A stretch of DNA of 64,000 bases, taken from contig JBJDZG010000026.1 of the NCBI GenBank assembly GCA_051867875.1, forward strand, positions 42,071-106,070, in the 5' to 3' direction. Position 1 is the first letter of the stretch. Every line of letters begins with the position of its first letter. The notes beneath the pieces are model-generated. The model did not search any database and was not told the origin of the DNA. It saw nothing but the letters and a program-made list of their open reading frames with translations. Of this stretch, positions 39,071 to 60,163 are shown in pieces. Position numbers and translations under genes: made by a program. The DNA is from Eubacteriales bacterium. Lineage in GTDB: Bacteria > Bacillota > Clostridia > Oscillospirales > CAG-272.

Positions 39071-39183
39071 GTTTGCTATGGGATAATTATATACTATTTC
39101 TCCCGAAATTTCAAACGGTTTTGTAAATATTTTTAACATTTCTTCATATTATTTTATAAATTGACTGTTTTGGGGGCGATTTT

Positions 39184-45828: not shown

Positions 45829-45946
45829 CACTCGAGGGAGTAGTTCGCGTATATCGTGATATGTCAACATTCATGAATTTTTTAATTCTGGCATATCTTA
45901 ATGAACAAGACTCAAGTGTAGAAATACACTTGAGTCTTGTTTCGTT
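45829..45946 (+). ncRNA. probable yybP-ykoY (Mn2+) riboswitch with terminator expression platform
   Basis: GAGGGAGTAG (45834-45843) resembles the conserved GGGGAGUAG loop. CAAGAC (45906-45911) resembles the conserved 3' element. P1 forms between CACTCGAG (45829-45836) and CTCAAGTG (45911-45918) at 7/8 pairs. The P1 3' strand is shared with a 15-bp terminator hairpin (45904-45918 / 45927-45941) followed by TCGTT. This is ON-switch logic. The assignment is by eye only, with no covariance model run. Confidence 0.6.
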
Positions 45947-51142: not shown

Positions 51143-52138
51143 TTAATTTTTAATAAACTCAACTGCGAGCTCTACGCAAGCGCGGACGTCGTTCATATCT
51201 ATCATCTCAACGCCCGAGTGAATATATCTTGAAGGAATGGAGAGCGCACCTGCGCGAGCGCCTGCGCCCGTCATCTGAATGGACGAGGTATCCGTTCCGC
51301 CGTAAGCAAGAATTTCAAGCTGGGATTTGATATTCTTCTCTTTTGAGAGAGTCCCGAGCTTTTCAACGATATCGACGTCGCATATTACGGACATATCCTT
51401 AATCTTGATTGCCGCACCGCCGCCGAGCTTGACTGCCATGGGCTTTGAGCCTGACGTATCACCCGTTCCCGTTACGTCAAACGTGAGTGAATAGTCGGGT
51501 GCTACTTCAAAAGCGGCGGTTTTAGAGCCTCTGCAACCAACCTCTTCCTGAACGCTGAATACGTAATAAATGTCGTCTGCAACGTTTTCTTTTGCAATCT
51601 GCTTTGCAATTTCGATTACAACGGCACAGCCCACTCTGTCGTCAAGAGGTCTGCCTACGACTCTCTGTCCTGCGAGCTTGCTTATATTGGATTTGAGCGC
51701 GAAGGTATCGCCGATTTTAACCTTTCTCTCGGCATTTTTTCCCGAGTCCGCGCCGATATCTATGTAGAAAAGGTCGGGAGCGAAGTCCTGCGCCTTAGTG
51801 CCCGAATTTGGCACGAGAACGCCGTGAGTTCCGTTTTCCGAGATGACCTCGCCGAAGGCACAAGCTACCCAATTAATGCCGCCCACGGGAGCAACTCTGA
51901 TAAATCCGTTATCCTCAATAAAGTTGACAATAAAACCTATCTCGTCCATGTGCGCGCAGAGCATAATCTTCTTGGGATTTTCTGCGCTTCCCCTCTTTAC
52001 GGCGATAAGATTTCCGAGCGCGTCGATATAAGAGCTGTCGCAATAGGGTGTGATGAGCTCTTCGACTTTATGTGCCACGCGGTGCTCCTTACCCGAAACA
52101 CCGTGAACGAGTGTTACCTGTTTTAATGTATTGTACAT
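51143..52138 (-). CDS. M42 family metallopeptidase (paralog 3)
   Basis: 331 aa. HMDEIGF, DDRVGC and QEEVG motifs. Confidence 0.85.
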   Translation of the reverse strand: MYNTLKQVTLVHGVSGKEHRVAHKVEELITPYCDSSYIDALGNLIAVKRGSAENPKKIMLCAHMDEIGFIVNFIEDNGFIRVAPVGGINWVACAFGEVISENGTHGVLVPNSGTKAQDFAPDLFYIDIGADSGKNAERKVKIGDTFALKSNISKLAGQRVVGRPLDDRVGCAVVIEIAKQIAKENVADDIYYVFSVQEEVGCRGSKTAAFEVAPDYSLTFDVTGTGDTSGSKPMAVKLGGGAAIKIKDMSVICDVDIVEKLGTLSKEKNIKSQLEILAYGGTDTSSIQMTGAGARAGALSIPSRYIHSGVEMIDMNDVRACVELAVEFIKN

Positions 52139-52142
52139 AATA

Positions 52143-53210
52143 TTAAACCTCCGCTTTCATATTTTTTAGCATTGTAAATACAAGCTCTCTTATTGACGTA
52201 TAGTCCTCCATGCTTGCAACGCAGGCGGGAGAATGAAGATATCTCGTTCCCATTGATATGGCAACACACTTGACTCCCTTGCCCGATTTATGGATATGCC
52301 CTGCGTCGTTACCGCCCGAAACGTATCTCTTGACCTGAGCCTTGATACCGTTTTCCTTGGCAGTGCCGAGTGTAAAATCGACAAATTCCGTATTGTAGAT
52401 GGTTGAGCGGTCCATAATGGACACGACTCCGCCCTCTCCTACGTCAGCTACTCTCTTATGTGCGGGTGCGCCTGCGATATCTCCGATAGCAGTAGTTTCA
52501 AGGATAATGGCACGCGAGGGCTTTACCTTTTCCGCGACAACCTTTGCGCCCGAAAGTCCTACTTCTTCGCGTACGGTAAAGCAGAAATACACGTCAAAAG
52601 GAAGCTTGAGGTTATTTTCCCTTATCTTTCTGATGACTTCAATCATAGCGCAGCAGCCCGCTCTGTCGTCTATAGCCTTTCCCTTTGCGTACTTTTTGTC
52701 CGTACCGAAGAAAACGAAATCGGAATTGAACACGCCGAAATCGCCGACGTTTACGTACTCGCGCACCTCGTCGCCGTCCTTTGCGCCGATGTCTATGTAC
52801 ATTTCCTTAACGGGAGTTACGCTGAATCTCTCCTCACGGCTTTTATGGTGTATTGCCTTTGCGGCTATAACGCCGTTTATTCTGTGATTCTCGTTTCCGA
52901 GAATTACCTGCTTACCGTAAAGCACCTTGGGGTCGATGCCGCCGAGATTTGAAAAATGGATATATCCGTCGTCGTCAATGAAAGTAATCATAAAGCCCAC
53001 TTCGTCCATATGCGAGGATATCATAACTCTGTCGCGGGGGGCTTGTCCCTCTCCCTCGATTACGGCGTAAATGTTTCCAAAGCTGTCGCGTGCTACTCTG
53101 TCGCAGTCATTTCCGAGCTCTTCGGTGATGGCGTCAGCGACCTCAGCTTCAAATCCTGTAGGACCGAATTTTCCGCAAAGATATTCCAAAAGTTCTCTGC
53201 CTTCTCTCAT
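52143..53210 (-). CDS. M42 family metallopeptidase (paralog 2)
   Basis: 355 aa. HMDEVGF, DDRAGC and REEVG motifs. Confidence 0.85.
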   Translation of the reverse strand: MREGRELLEYLCGKFGPTGFEAEVADAITEELGNDCDRVARDSFGNIYAVIEGEGQAPRDRVMISSHMDEVGFMITFIDDDGYIHFSNLGGIDPKVLYGKQVILGNENHRINGVIAAKAIHHKSREERFSVTPVKEMYIDIGAKDGDEVREYVNVGDFGVFNSDFVFFGTDKKYAKGKAIDDRAGCCAMIEVIRKIRENNLKLPFDVYFCFTVREEVGLSGAKVVAEKVKPSRAIILETTAIGDIAGAPAHKRVADVGEGGVVSIMDRSTIYNTEFVDFTLGTAKENGIKAQVKRYVSGGNDAGHIHKSGKGVKCVAISMGTRYLHSPACVASMEDYTSIRELVFTMLKNMKAEV

Positions 53211-54262
53211 ATTTCAAGTCCTCCTTTGGCGAAATGTTCCGCAATCTTTGCGTCCTTTATAAAGGCTTTGACGAGTTCAGTAAGAGTGTTTGCATCGTCA
53301 AGTGAAATTATCTCGTTATACGTATGCATTGATGCGAGCGGAAGTCCCACGTCAACCGTCGGGATACCCTCTCTTGCAAGCTGAATGGATACCGCATTGG
53401 TTCCCGTATGCGTAGGAGAAACGGACACCTGATGCGGTATCTTATTTTCCTTTGCAATATCGAAAAGCATATTCGTAAGTTTTCTGTCGGTTACTGCGGA
53501 GACAGTAATGGACGGACCTTTGCCAATCTCAACCGTTTCCTCTTTTTTAGTTCCGGGCACTCTGCCGAGGTTTACGTCAATGGACATAGCGTAGTCGGCG
53601 TTTATGGCATACGCTCCGGGGAGCGCCATGCCCGTAACCTCTTCACAGCAGGAGAGCATTACGTATACGTCGCCTGCGAGTTCATCTTTGGGCGTATTTG
53701 CGACTGCGTAAATCGCGCAAGCCGCGCAAGCCTTATCGTCAAAGCTCTTACCCATAATCTTATTGCCGAGCAACTCGGTATATTTGGGTGCAAATCCGAC
53801 GGGTGTGCCTATTCTTATCTTGCTTTCAAGCTCCTCTTTTGTAAGGCAGGTATCTATAAGAAGCTCGTCAATCTTGGGAAGCTCCTTATTATCCCCGCTC
53901 GCAAGGTGGGGCGGAGTTGATGCGATAACGCCGAAAAGTCTTTCTTCCTTTCCGTAAATTATGACGTCGCTCGCCTGTAAAATTCCCGTGTCGATGCCTC
54001 CGATATTGATGACGCGGAGAAATCCGCCGTCAAGAATCTCGGTTACGTACATTCCTATCTCGTCCATGTGTGCGTCAAGCATAATCTTAGGTGCTCCGTC
54101 GCGTCCGCAACGCTTGACAAAAATCTGATTTCCGACGTTATCGAGATAGCTTTCGTCAAAGCTGTCGCCGACCATGGAAAGCAGTTTTTCTCTTTCAAAC
54201 CTCTCAAAACCGCCTATGCTCATAAGCGAGGAGAGGTCTACTATCAGATTTTTAAGTTCCAT
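53207..54262 (-). CDS. M42 family metallopeptidase (paralog 1)
   Basis: 351 aa. HMDEIGM, DDKACA and CEEVTG motifs (more divergent). 4-nt overlap with paralog 2. Confidence 0.8.
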   Translation of the reverse strand: MELKNLIVDLSSLMSIGGFERFEREKLLSMVGDSFDESYLDNVGNQIFVKRCGRDGAPKIMLDAHMDEIGMYVTEILDGGFLRVINIGGIDTGILQASDVIIYGKEERLFGVIASTPPHLASGDNKELPKIDELLIDTCLTKEELESKIRIGTPVGFAPKYTELLGNKIMGKSFDDKACAACAIYAVANTPKDELAGDVYVMLSCCEEVTGMALPGAYAINADYAMSIDVNLGRVPGTKKEETVEIGKGPSITVSAVTDRKLTNMLFDIAKENKIPHQVSVSPTHTGTNAVSIQLAREGIPTVDVGLPLASMHTYNEIISLDDANTLTELVKAFIKDAKIAEHFAKGGLEI

Positions 54263-58496: not shown

Positions 58497-58534
58497 TGAA
58501 AAAAGAAGAAAGCACCCAATTGGGTGCTTTCTTC
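58497..58534 (-). terminator. intrinsic terminator directly after the truncated four-helix-bundle ORF
   Basis: GAAGAAAGCACCCA-AT-TGGGTGCTTTCTTC perfect 14-bp stem, followed on the minus strand by TTTTTTC. Confidence 0.8.
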
Positions 58535-58657
58535 TCAGAATGTTGCACTACGCTCTAACTGATTGATAAGGGAATAGTGCCGTTTTATGCCATCGGTCAT
58601 TTTTAACACTTTGACCGCAAAATCCATAGATAAATCTGCAAGCTTGTTTTCTGCCAT
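58535..58657 (-). pseudogene. N-terminal remnant (40 codons) of a four-helix-bundle protein gene (23S rRNA IVS protein / Avd-like family)
   Basis: Below the track size cutoff. It translates to MAENKLADLSMDFAVKVLKMTDGIKRHYSLINQLERSATF*. It stops where family members normally continue with S-I/V-G-A-N-I. It retains an AAGGGGTGA Shine-Dalgarno sequence and runs straight into a terminator. Confidence 0.6.
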
Positions 58658-58708
58658 AATAATCACCCCTTAATATAAGTATAGCACAAACTTAAAACAA
58701 AAGCAACA

Positions 58709-58876
58709 ATGAAATCCTGCTTTGCAGGATGAAATCCGAGTAAACTCGGATGAAATCTTCAGCCTACTGCTTCAGATGAAATTAAATCCGCCTCCCTTCA
58801 CCCCGCGTTAGCGGGATTTCATCGCGAAGCGATTTCATCCACGAAAGCGGATTTATTCCGCAAAAGGCGGATTTAG
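58709..58876. repeat. array of seven short stem-loops with conserved ATC(C)...(G)GAT stem ends, spaced about 20 bp apart; linkers are GAA in the left block and TTC/TT in the right block
   Basis: Hairpins at 58714-58730, 58734-58751, 58755-58777, 58784-58819 (with an internal loop), 58821-58833, 58837-58852 and 58857-71. ATGAAATC(C) occurs 3 times in direct repeat on the plus strand. GGATTTCAT, GATTTCAT, GGATTTAT and GGATTTAG follow in inverted orientation. Confidence 0.7.
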
Positions 58877-58879
58877 TTG

Positions 58880-58917
58880 AAAAAGACTCAGAATTGTATC
58901 CAATCCTGAGTCTTTTT
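58880..58917 (-). terminator. intrinsic terminator after tRNA-Arg (usable in both directions)
   Basis: AAAAGACTCAG / CTGAGTCTTTT outer stem plus an inner AATTG/CAATC extension. T-runs lie on both sides. Confidence 0.8.
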
Positions 58918-58918
58918 C

Positions 58919-58995
58919 TGGCGTGGCATGAGGGATTCGAACCCCCGACCTTTTGGTTCGTAGCCAAATACTCTATCCAGCTGAGCTAATGCCAC
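58919..58995 (-). tRNA. tRNA-Arg (anticodon ACG), CCA encoded
   Basis: The reverse complement folds as acceptor stem GTGGCAT/ATGCCAC, D arm GCTC..GAGT, anticodon stem TTTGG/CCAAA with loop CTACGAA, T arm GGGGG-TTCGAAT-CCCTC, then G-CCA. Confidence 0.92.
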
Positions 58996-59158: not shown

Positions 59159-60163
59159 ATGAGTTCATTCCCCGCACTTAGTGAATTTTCCGAACAGGTA
59201 CAGCAATTTGCGATATACAAACGCACTATACAGGGCTGTTCCGAAAAAACCGTTAACGAATATATGCTCGACCTTCGTACCTTCTTTCGCTATCTGATTG
59301 CCGTCGAGCAAGGAATAGAGATAGATTCCGATGAATTTACAAAGATAGATATCCGCTCCGTTGACGCGGATTATTTATCAAAGGTAAAGACCGAACAGAT
59401 ATACGAATTCCTTTTTTATACGGGAAACGTGCGCAAGAACCTTTGGTCTGCAAAGGCGCGCAAGCTTTCCGCGATAAAGGGACTTTACAAATATATGACC
59501 GTAAAGCGCAATTATTTTGAGGACAATCCCGCCATAAATATCGAGTCGCCGAAGCCGAAAAAGACTTTGCCCAAATTCTTAAATCTCGACGAGTCGATGC
59601 TGCTGCTTCAAGCGGTGCTTGACGACGGGGAGAGCAACACAAAAGAGAGAGATTACTGCATTATCACGCTCTTTCTCAACTGCGGTATGCGTCTTTCCGA
59701 GCTTGTCGGCATAAATCTCAACGATATCGACCGAGAGCTTCGCTCCCTGCGGGTACTCGGCAAGGGCAACAAGGAGCGAATCATATATCTGAATGAAGCT
59801 TGCAGGACGGTGCTTGGCGATTATCTTGCGATACGCAACGGTCCGAAATATGAAAACGTACAGACACGCGCGCTGTTTTTGAGCCGCCTTAACAAGAGAA
59901 TAAGCGCAAAGACCGTTCAATGGCTCGTTTACAAATATCTCGAACGCGCGGGACTTGAAGCGAAGCACTTCTCCGTTCACAAGCTCCGCCACACCGCCGC
60001 GACCTTAATGTATCAGAGCGGAAACGTGGACGTGCGCGTTCTTAAAGATATTTTAGGTCACGAACAGCTCAACACAACGCAGATTTACACGCACGTTTCA
60101 AATGAAAATATGCGTTCGGCGATGGAGCAAAATCCGCTCGCAAAGGTCAAAAAGGACAACTGA
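59159..60163 (+). CDS. tyrosine recombinase, XerC/XerD-like
   Basis: Catalytic set R (GMRLSEL), K (GKGNKER), HxxR (HKLRHTAAT), H (LGHEQL), Y (TQIYTHV). I use ATG 59159, which has a GGAGG Shine-Dalgarno sequence. Confidence 0.85.
   Translation: MSSFPALSEFSEQVQQFAIYKRTIQGCSEKTVNEYMLDLRTFFRYLIAVEQGIEIDSDEFTKIDIRSVDADYLSKVKTEQIYEFLFYTGNVRKNLWSAKARKLSAIKGLYKYMTVKRNYFEDNPAINIESPKPKKTLPKFLNLDESMLLLQAVLDDGESNTKERDYCIITLFLNCGMRLSELVGINLNDIDRELRSLRVLGKGNKERIIYLNEACRTVLGDYLAIRNGPKYENVQTRALFLSRLNKRISAKTVQWLVYKYLERAGLEAKHFSVHKLRHTAATLMYQSGNVDVRVLKDILGHEQLNTTQIYTHVSNENMRSAMEQNPLAKVKKDN

Follow-up and report, generated by a model that had tools for sequence, protein, structure and literature searches.

A sub-threshold Gut-1 hairpin array as the core of a decayed cassette inserted at the 3' end of a tRNA-Arg gene

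The hairpin array, its family and its insertion site

We analysed a 64,000-nt stretch of DNA from a Eubacteriales bacterium (contig JBJDZG010000026.1; "the window" in the following) with regard to an array of short hairpins at positions 58709-58876. A preliminary description had placed this array in non-coding DNA between a tRNA-Arg gene and the remnant of a four-helix-bundle gene, and both the non-coding character and the flanks are borne out, i.e., tRNA-Arg(ACG) at 58919-58995 and a PF05635/TIGR02436 remnant at 58541-58657, both on the - strand. The array is a sub-threshold variant of the Gut-1 RNA motif (Rfam RF01706) and forms the core of a decayed cassette that was inserted at the 3' end of the tRNA-Arg gene. 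It is a real, selected structure, in which three free hairpins are followed by a closed three-hairpin domain and then by a terminator. The features of the locus are as follows.

58497-58535, - strand: original terminator of tRNA-Arg (AGAAGAAAGCACCCAATTGGGTGCTTTCTTCT), orthologous to the terminator AAAAAAGCACTCTATTGAGTGCTTTTTT of the relatives L139/L140
58536-58919: inserted cassette of 384 bp, a clean indel relative to the syntenic loci L139/L140
58541-58657, - strand: truncated four-helix-bundle gene (PF05635/TIGR02436), ATG at 58657, ribosome-binding site AAGGGGTGA upstream
58678-58706, - strand: putative outward promoter, -35 TTGCTT (58706-58701), 17-nt spacer, extended -10 TGcTATACT (58686-58678)
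58714-58777, + strand: distal (left) array, hairpins H1-H3 with GAA linkers on the + strand
58714-58730: H1, ATCCTGC/TTT/GCAGGAT, 7-bp stem
58734-58751: H2, ATCCGAG/TAAA/CTCGGAT, 7-bp stem
58755-58777: H3, outer stem ATCT..AGAT, conserved TC/TC internal loop and inner stem of 3-4 bp
58784-58792: centre segment a, AAATCCGCC, 5' arm (+ strand) of a long-range stem
58800-58852, - strand: proximal (right) array, hairpins H4-H6 with GAA linkers on the - strand
58800-58817: H4, begins with AC; a C.A mismatch on the + strand is U.G on the - strand
58821-58833: H5, ATCGC/GAA/GCGAT
58837-58852: H6, single A.C mismatch on the + strand
58857-58861: segment a', TCCGC, local partner of segment b
58857-58871: "H7", TCCGC/AAAAG/GCGGA
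58866-58874: segment b, GGCGGATTT, pairs locally with a' ("H7") or long-range with a
58879-58918: bidirectional intrinsic terminator of the cassette, GAAAAAGACTCAG...CTGAGTCTTTTTC, last base just before the CCA end of tRNA-Arg
58919-58995, - strand: tRNA-Arg(ACG), target gene outside the cassette, called by ARAGORN and Rfam and identical in empty-site relatives

When the + strand is read to the right of the centre, the palindromes are joined by TTC or TT. The + strand linker GGATGAAATCC (58727-58737) recurs with one mismatch at 58748-58758, and inverted copies of the same type provide the - strand linkers at 58814-58824 and 58830-58840. Allowing for up to one mismatch, four of the five window matches of GGATGAAATCC are located in the array, with 1.4 matches expected across the whole 64 kb. 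The switch in linker orientation that had been noticed near 58780 is confirmed, with the centre near 58780-58790. A tandem-repeat finder reports merely a 2.4-copy 16-nt stretch for the array.

Folding of 58700-58918 shows energy z-values of -9.2 (RNA, + strand), -9.3 (RNA, - strand) and -8.7 (DNA), and none of 200 shuffled sequences of this region folds as well as the native one. The minimum-energy fold of both strands contains a long-range stem of nine pairs between AAATCCGCC and GGCGGATTT (58784-58792 with 58866-58874), and the cassette terminator is folded in every minimum-energy structure. Because 58866-58874 pairs with the centre and thereby closes a three-hairpin domain, the right block is not the mirror image of the left block. 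That is, the two blocks are not equivalent, and their earlier description as one architecture in inverted orientation had to be given up. The seven hairpins of 5-7 bp that were initially reported stand as an array, but H3 is no clean stem and the seventh hairpin is poorly supported: across homologues, it shows four conserved pairs, while the fifth is 36% paired. A start with ATC(C), once assigned to every stem, holds for five of the seven.

A cmscan run against Rfam, where the gathering score of RF01706 is 50 bits, matches both halves to the Gut-1 motif, i.e., the distal half at 58695-58761 (+ strand, 43.4 bits) and the proximal half at 58792-58879 (- strand, 36.5 bits). The respective E-values are 1.4e-7 and 7.6e-6 for the local search and 3.2e-5 and 1.8e-3 for the search of the whole window, in which no other Gut-1 match was found. 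Both alignments span the full model (model positions 1-77) and both score below the gathering score. The window array is nevertheless a sub-threshold Gut-1 relative, since it is tied to the family through a homologous copy (L018, 3528-3600) that is orthologous to the proximal half and passes the gathering score with 50.7 bits. Also the defining Gut-1 characters are present in the window, i.e., three hairpins with A-U and U-A/U.G closing pairs and GAA linkers ((G)UGAAAU), and the stems are supported by covariation. The proximal three-hairpin half of the cassette is what Rfam names the Gut-1 RNA motif.

The statement of the preliminary description that no known feature class explains the array is thus overturned by these matches. 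Its suggestions of an intergenic repeat and of a structured RNA both pointed in the right direction. Its exclusion of CRISPR (clustered regularly interspaced short palindromic repeats), tRNA-like structures and terminator stacks is supported. We reject a CRISPR array since the units are non-identical, their orientation flips and regular identical direct repeats are missing, and a tRNA-like cloverleaf since the closed domain is called neither by ARAGORN nor by the Rfam tRNA models. Further candidates were discarded as well: the repeat RNA of a type III toxin-antitoxin system (units not identical), a kink-turn or C/D-box motif (no tandem G.A partner strand) and a CsrA-type GGA sponge (GGA is missing from other lineages). 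A second array flagged by our unit finder beside the tRNA-Thr of the window (39083-39139) is a plain terminator in AT-rich DNA. Elsewhere in the window, 45831-45943 shows a weak match to the Streptococcus small RNA (sRNA) SSRC10 (RF02617; 38.4 bits vs. a gathering score of 56, E = 0.0014).

The insertion can be read from syntenic loci, the comparison of which the preliminary description had proposed. L139/L140 encode a 96% identical XerC in the order SodC - tRNA-Arg - XerC, and their tRNA is directly followed by its own terminator; the site is likewise empty in L141, L142 and L144, i.e., none of these loci contains the array. The insertion point is located exactly between the CCA end of tRNA-Arg and its native terminator, which is now found about 384 bp from the tRNA, behind the four-helix-bundle remnant. 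TTCT is present at both junctions, such that the cassette boundaries are ambiguous by up to 4 nt; this junction repeat is seen for a single event and overlaps the T-tract and CCA. The insertion at tRNA-Arg(ACG) occurs in the window lineage only, i.e., there is presence/absence polymorphism between close relatives, and on comparison of these sequences a gain in the window lineage appears more parsimonious than ancestral presence. Window positions 58540-58945 are about 80-85% identical to tRNA-adjoining blocks in L074, L065, L095, L094, L103 and L055.

No terminal inverted repeats were found to bound the 384-bp insertion, whose left end is a gene fragment and whose right end is a terminator; weak inverted termini (13/19) are restricted to subfamily c (JAZTYY metagenome-assembled genome, MAG). 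A classical integrase insertion is rejected since the far junction in the window has no duplicate of the tRNA 3' end. The neighbouring XerC (59159-60163) is identical to a protein of "MAG: Eubacteriales bacterium" and has many orthologues; as a conserved housekeeping orthologue that is also found at empty sites, it was dismissed as the responsible recombinase. In the more distant XerC relatives L145-L147 (3640-3900), tRNA-Arg is encoded on the other strand, and some 100 nt downstream of it there is another tRNA 3'-end fragment that resembles the remnant of an integration event. Further left in the window (51143-54262, - strand), there are three tandem paralogous peptidase genes of the M42 family, named after the precomputed Pfam annotation of L142.

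The cassette and its homologues

Comparing copies, the order of the complete cassette, read in the direction of the tRNA, is terminator, proximal array within a long-range stem of 9-10 bp, inverted distal array, outward promoter and PF05635 gene. The distal array has three or four hairpins in opposite orientation to the proximal one. The terminator allele of the window is also found beside tRNA-Ser, tRNA-Leu, tRNA-Arg(ccg) and the transfer-messenger RNA (tmRNA) in other MAGs; as two terminator alleles are found again at other tRNAs in other MAGs, the terminator moves together with the element. The putative outward promoter was read by eye and fails a consensus scan. The same TGcTATACT is found in L162/L163 (lineage B, see below), 17 nt after a -35 element TTGATT. 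Judged from its sequence and position, 58678-58706 is the putative promoter of the four-helix-bundle gene.

This gene is cut after codon 39 in the window, i.e., the junction is located inside the gene. The remnant is 87% identical to residues 1-39 of an intact 116-aa gene in L074 (tblastn). With about 40 aa, its profile scores are weak matches only (18 bits at a cut-off of 33.8 and 17.9 bits at a cut-off of 24), and the intact L074 orthologue reaches 91.3 and 102 bits (Pfam PF05635 and NCBIfam TIGR02436). An intact gene of 114-118 aa is found on the - strand at the same position in six dyad loci (L074, L095, L065, L094, L103, L117); it is truncated in the window and L055, and the homologue of L102 is located beside single arrays. 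The preliminary description had correctly recognised a four-helix-bundle remnant but had missed that it is the cassette's own gene and not an unrelated neighbour. It had likewise overlooked the 384-bp insertion that close relatives lack, and that the terminator at 58879-58918 is part of it. Other copies show a conserved arm of about 190 nt instead of the gene, with a TTGATT-17-TGATATAAT promoter directed outward into the next gene.

Some arrangements around this gene are worth recording. In L102 (249-1560), three single-orientation arrays and the four-helix-bundle gene are found within 1.5 kb, with one array between this gene and an RNase HI-like gene. In L065 (6020-6110), the gene is joined at its 3' end to a truncated second copy of the proximal half-array and therefore has array sequence on both sides. 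A small unrelated open reading frame (ORF) of 138-146 aa without Pfam hit often follows the gene with a short gap or overlap (L162, 2378-2794; also L103 and L074), which suggests a two-gene unit of the four-helix-bundle gene and a variable second gene.

To describe the family, we scanned one genome per species with the pattern GGATGAAATC-N(6-16)-GGATGAAATC; copy counts given in the following are those among the matches listed. The scan yields at least 119 loci, of which at least about 60 are true hairpin arrays, while the remainder is coding or consists of simple repeats. All true arrays listed are from gut or rumen MAGs of Clostridia/Eubacteriales, Christensenellaceae, Acutalibacteraceae and Oscillospiraceae. 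Several MAGs contain from at least two to at least six copies, and many copies are found at true contig ends, since multi-copy repeats have that effect on assemblies. The full dyad is present in 33 loci. The homologue search proposed in the preliminary description thus finds arrays in dozens of MAGs, and the cassette family occurs widely and in multiple copies among uncultured gut Clostridia.

The covariation check proposed alongside it shows strong compensatory changes in the stems. We aligned 29 distinct full-length dyad copies (alignment A1) and assessed 56 base pairs, using 500 shuffles and slid partners as controls. In total, 91.8% of the cells are paired, compared to 28-39% with slid partners. 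Both sides change in 22 of the 56 pairs (135 cells), and such values are reached by none of the 500 shuffles. Helices 1-3 are 94.6-98.5% paired with ten pairs changing on both sides, and compensatory changes are also present in helices 5-7. The nine-pair long-range stem reaches 97.7% pairing, and in L018 it has changed on both sides (AAATCCGTCC/GGACGGATTT). The impression that stem ends are conserved while inner stems vary is thus supported by the compensatory changes in 28 homologues. A spacing of about 20 bp, i.e., two helical turns, does not hold for the family: the units are spaced by 15-28 nt (modes 16 and 20-22), so that helical phasing of sites was discarded.

With regard to genomic position, 25 of the 33 full-length copies adjoin a tRNA or tmRNA 3' end, either complete or as a fragment. 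For 19 copies (13 anticodons), the neighbour is a tRNA gene encoded on the opposite strand, and 0-1 nt separate its CCA end from the cassette terminator; two copies adjoin a tmRNA gene within 0-1 nt of CCA. In the four copies L056, L038, L017 and L079, the cassette terminator abuts a 12-23 nt copy of a tRNA 3' end, and the intact tRNA is found 170-220 nt beyond, past an unrelated stretch that starts with its own terminator. This stretch looks like a later insertion of something else, of the attachment-site (att) type, into the same tRNA; accordingly, we assign the tRNA 3'-end duplicates to later unrelated insertions and reject them as the cassette's own. In window orientation, the fragment arrangement is found about 220-445 nt to the right of where the array starts. 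One subfamily, known from two MAGs, is located away from tRNAs and has a different terminal hairpin. Furthermore, single-orientation arrays of four hairpins occur at many loci, with a long hairpin before and sometimes a terminator after them, and arrays are sometimes placed between the genes of an operon.

Related four-helix-bundle genes extend the family to further lineages, and the module is older than the lineage of the window. In the viral-labelled contigs L160/L161, dyad arrays with GTGAAATA linkers precede a gene of 69% identity; L161 shows the order tRNA - terminator - array - inverted array - gene. Lineage B (L084, L162-L165; 38% identity) repeats this layout behind tmRNA, tRNA-Val or protein genes, with (T)ATGTAAT(C) linkers and a TTGATT-17-TGcTATACT promoter just ahead of the gene. 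A metagenome scan for three units of the classic Gut-1 linker GTGATATT results in 120 loci with 51 true arrays. Nine of these 51 arrays form lineage C and read tRNA-Arg(ACG) or tRNA-Tyr - terminator - dyad - four-helix-bundle gene (52-55% identity), with linkers of the GTGATAT type. A long-range stem encloses the proximal half in every lineage, each time with a different sequence (AATCCGAAGG/CCTTCGGATT, TATATTCGCC/GGCGAATATA). Overall, three or four linker motifs, TGAAAT, TGATAT and TGTAAT among them, are associated with as many protein lineages, i.e., the linkers read GATGAAATC or GTGAAATA in one four-helix-bundle lineage, GTGATATT in a second and TATGTAATC in a third.

Most protein clusters of the L084 type are known solely from contigs of 0.5-2 kb, and the gene is therefore located between assembly-breaking repeats on both sides. 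When viral contigs were scanned with two DNA patterns, only coding or chance matches were obtained, and the association of the cassette with phages, seen in the two viral-labelled contigs that contain gene and array, is weak. An ATATCAC-type (antisense) array adjoins a TGAAAT-type array in L093 (4250-4480), such that two linker lineages coexist in one genome. Tandem short repeats with GAGTGAA, GGAATGC or GAACAAAGTGAAG-containing units adjoin hairpin arrays in L008 (3560-3851), L080 (3876-3959 and 5410-5463) and L037 (249-480). In an Anaerolineales MAG (L110, 4780-5260), a PF05635-like gene (40% identical) has tandem GGATGAAG repeats on both sides, and inverted CTTCATCC repeats come after the downstream set; the same association may here exist without hairpins and in a different phylum.

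Folded strand and function

Two signals bear on which nucleic acid is folded. The second closing pair reads U.G on the GAA-linker strand and is a C.A mismatch on the opposite strand, which applies to the GUGAAAU and GUGAUAU lineages and to the window's H4. On sequence grounds, this GU-GAA-AU pattern favours folding of the GAA-linker strand. On the other hand, loops bounded by G..A (GNA/GNNA) are found opposite the GAA linker in 92 of 203 distinct hairpins vs. 4 on the GAA strand (p ~ 1e-11), among them the GCGAAGC loop of H5. Loops of the types C(GNA)G and C(GNNA)G, of which GCGAAGC is one, are extra-stable mini-hairpins of DNA (PMC13037366). For 102 distinct hairpins, the first six pairs comprise 579 Watson-Crick, 9 G.U, 6 A.C and 2 other pairs. 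Such a near-absence of wobble pairs is unusual for RNA, and the non-Watson-Crick pairs are too few for a strand assignment. Three-nucleotide loops predominate. Between the tRNA terminator and the proximal array there are 3 nt, where no promoter fits, and for a transcript of the distal half our scan detects no promoter while a reading by eye is unconvincing.

The array makes up the structured core of the cassette inserted behind tRNA-Arg, and we think it probable that it acts in cis via a lineage-specific factor that reads the linkers. Within this scheme, the hairpins would fold in single-stranded nucleic acid and the inner stems would be free to vary as long as they are paired, while the 3-nt linker and two closing pairs on each side would be invariant. 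Since the linker motif differs by four-helix-bundle lineage, the linkers would most simply be lineage-specific recognition sites, presented by the hairpins. The obvious candidate for the factor is the cassette's own four-helix-bundle protein, and the cis effect may concern the spread or maintenance of the cassette or else the control of the adjacent outward promoter. Several observations weigh against this scheme. The strand signals are in conflict, with the U.G pair pointing to the GAA strand and the G..A loops to the opposite one. The role of the four-helix-bundle protein is derived from adjacency and three or four lineage-level co-variations, and the L074-type protein is slightly acidic by residue count, unlike basic nucleic-acid binders. 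The gene is present in only 8 of the 33 full-length dyad copies and absent from most single-orientation arrays too, which means that an array can be kept, and may even work, with no protein supplied in cis. Finally, the insertion lacks its own terminal inverted repeats and is flanked by a repeat of at most 4 nt, the cassette encodes no recombinase, and left ends differ between copies.

Among the alternatives, a signal for DNA mobility deserves most attention, although we regard it as doubtful. Here, the hairpins on the TTC-linker strand of each half would form in single-stranded or supercoiled DNA, with the active strands diverging from the centre, and would be recognised by an enzyme acting in trans, e.g., an HUH/RAYT-type transposase (RAYT: REP-associated tyrosine transposase; REP: repetitive extragenic palindrome) or a reverse transcriptase (RT) with an Avd-like protein. 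The nearly pure Watson-Crick stems, the 92 vs. 4 hairpins with C(GNA)G/C(GNNA)G loops on one strand, the polymorphism with precise junctions and multi-copy dispersal, and a right end fixed at CCA with variable left ends all agree with this. There is also precedent in diversity-generating retroelements (DGRs), namely their hairpin/cruciform (PMC3240598) and their PF05635-like Avd (PMC10053308). Yet neither transposase, RT nor TR/VR-like repeat (TR/VR: template and variable repeat) was found in or near the cassette (ORFs of 52-64 kb; repeats window-wide), the stems are short (5-8 bp) and less GC-rich than DGR hairpins, and the C.A second pair of H4 and of lineages A' and C weakens the hairpins on the proposed strand. 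Moreover, the 4-nt junction repeat equally fits illegitimate recombination mediated by microhomology. The Gut-1 matches on both halves and the strong covariation could also come from free-standing sRNA genes, the class under which Rfam lists Gut-1, which we consider unlikely. The halves would then be transcribed in GAA sense, convergently, ending near the centre or at the bidirectional terminator, and might act in trans, e.g., as a sponge that offers single-stranded (G)UGAAAU sites to an RNA-binding protein. The U.G second pair found systematically on the GAA strand (GUGAAAU and GUGAUAU lineages, H4), the single-orientation four-hairpin arrays with a preceding long hairpin and sometimes a terminator, and the grade "RNA: certainly" of Weinberg et al. 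(PMC2864571) speak for it. However, 3 nt before the proximal array leave no room for a promoter, and the proximal half could therefore be made by read-through only; also for the distal half no promoter shows up in the scan. Almost no wobble pairs in the 102 hairpins, mostly 3-nt loops and a G..A signature on the other strand do not fit well either, and a trans-acting sRNA would not be expected to keep a fixed place at tRNA/tmRNA 3' ends or to be tied to a single gene family.

The remaining explanations fare worse. A passive repeat similar to REP/BIME (bacterial interspersed mosaic element) or BOX, which would serve termination or insulation after a stable-RNA gene or protect neighbouring mRNAs from exonucleases, is improbable in our view: the array is intergenic, dispersed and hairpin-rich, adjoins terminators (with a bidirectional one of its own) and is sometimes found within operons, but it lacks REP hallmarks (GTAG head, many near-identical copies of one palindrome), its conserved order and lineage-specific linkers exceed what a stability element needs, and the strong upstream terminator should prevent transcription that comes from the tRNA from reaching most of the array. 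Even less credible is a duplex operator, with linkers as transcription-factor sites that control the outward promoter beyond the distal array and palindromes as incidental. Although the array is always directly upstream of an outward promoter-like TTGNTT-17-TGnTATAMT and the 11-mers GGAT-GAA-ATCC of the window lineage are near-palindromic, the linkers of other lineages are non-palindromic, inner-stem pairing is under selection without being needed by a duplex-binding protein, the long-range stem is kept by structure rather than sequence, and a spacing of 15-28 bp without helical phasing is at odds with duplex binding sites in a rigid arrangement. For a fortuitous low-complexity relic, which the preliminary description had kept in view, there is practically no room: apart from the short unit length, everything contradicts it, i.e., z ~ -9, Rfam E-values of 1e-7 and 1e-5, and homologues with compensatory changes in dozens of MAGs.

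Going beyond the cis-acting scheme, it is a long shot, but a consequential one, that arrays and PF05635 proteins form a hitherto unrecognised protein-nucleic acid pair that defines a class of site-specific mobile cassettes. Such cassettes would fold as cruciform or single-stranded DNA with GNA/GNNA hairpins on the strand leading from the centre, their linker code would be read by the protein, and they would insert behind tRNA/tmRNA genes and, as intervening sequences (IVSs), inside rRNA genes, possibly by CCA-primed reverse transcription. If so, Gut-1 would be no small RNA gene at all.

Comparison with known systems

The locus links two orphans, i.e., Gut-1, which has had neither function nor host assigned since 2010, and the four-helix-bundle family PF05635/TIGR02436, known from rRNA intervening sequences since the 1990s, very widespread, uncharacterised and related to the DGR accessory protein Avd. 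Should the array be the cis partner of the four-helix-bundle protein, both orphans would become directly testable. The exact placement at the CCA end of many different tRNA/tmRNA genes, with no duplication of the integrase type in the window, suggests that stable-RNA genes are targeted in a manner not yet described. In practical terms, the arrays break metagenome assemblies and are likely mis-annotated as sRNA genes in gut MAGs.

The Gut-1 motif was described from human gut metagenomes only, with 43 representatives in no sequenced organism and with neither host nor function given; Weinberg et al. (2010) graded it "RNA: certainly" from covariation (PMC2864571). Beyond this description, we found no literature on Gut-1 or TIGR02436. 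The window array shares with it the origin in gut-associated uncultured bacteria, at least three short GAA-joined hairpins closed by A-U and U-A/U.G, and the (G)UGAAAU signature. The flanks of the original Stockholm seed sequences likewise contain a second, inverted half, and for one seed a tRNA and a terminator just upstream. It differs in its signature of linker and stem base, which reads GGAUGAAAUCC and not GUGAAAUA or GUGAUAUU. Furthermore, the published motif is one half only and comes without gene context: we found no published description of the dyad, the long-range stem, the position at tRNA/tmRNA 3' ends, the insertion polymorphism or the PF05635 neighbour.

The rRNA genes of Leptospira and Coxiella contain IVSs, i.e., insertions with inverted-repeat structure. 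IVSs of 23S/16S rRNA with PF05635 (23S_rRNA_IVP) ORFs resemble the cassette in being small insertions at a stable-RNA gene that encode the same four-helix-bundle family (PMC11270868). However, the cassette follows the mature 3' end of tRNA or tmRNA while the IVS is located inside the RNA, it brings its own terminator without implying excision by RNase III, and its inverted arrays are found together upstream of the ORF instead of flanking it.

DGRs carry Avd, a PF05635-like protein (PMC10053308), and their target sites need a DNA hairpin or cruciform with free stem sequence and a strand-specific GRNA loop (Guo et al. 2011, PMC3240598). Thus, a short stem that has to pair but is free in sequence, a strand-specific 4-nt G..A loop and a PF05635-like protein are common to both systems. 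In contrast to the 6-8 hairpins of 5-8 bp with many 3-nt loops of the cassette, the DGR site is one hairpin with a GC-rich stem of 7-10 bp beside VR, and DGRs need a reverse transcriptase and a TR/VR pair. We found no TR/VR-like direct repeat of at least 40 nt in the window, and a DGR in the window is rejected on this ground; no RT-like ORF is among those of 52-64 kb, which extend to about 6 kb from the array, and RT was not searched elsewhere in the genome.

With REP/BIME, BOX and the Correia elements, the latter resembling miniature inverted-repeat transposable elements (MITEs), the arrays share a dispersed, multi-copy, intergenic occurrence with hairpins in both orientations, the placement at gene 3' ends, presence/absence polymorphism and possible promoters or terminators. 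They differ in that their hairpins are unlike one another, with only the ATC..GAT ends and the GAA linker in common, in that no GTAG head is present, and, regarding MITE-like repeats, in that the inserted unit has no terminal inverted repeats. Among the window ORFs of 52-64 kb, there is no RAYT (Y1 transposase) gene; whole genomes were not searched for it. Also the strikingly specific target, i.e., the CCA end of tRNA/tmRNA, and the association with one protein family set the cassette apart from REP, BOX and Correia.

Short conserved motifs repeated between or on variable, covarying hairpins are known from the sponge RNAs CsrB and RsmZ. There, the motif is a loop GGA, which is not the motif of the arrays and is absent in the GUGAAAU and GUGAUAU lineages, and we know of no partner RNA-binding protein for the arrays. 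Integron attC sites share with the arrays a conserved stem base with variable inner stem, recognition as folded single-stranded DNA and adjoining small gene cassettes. An attC site, however, is a single imperfect hairpin of 60-140 nt with extrahelical bases that is recombined by IntI at attI, whereas the array is composed of units of 13-23 nt and has neither an integrase nor attI beside it.

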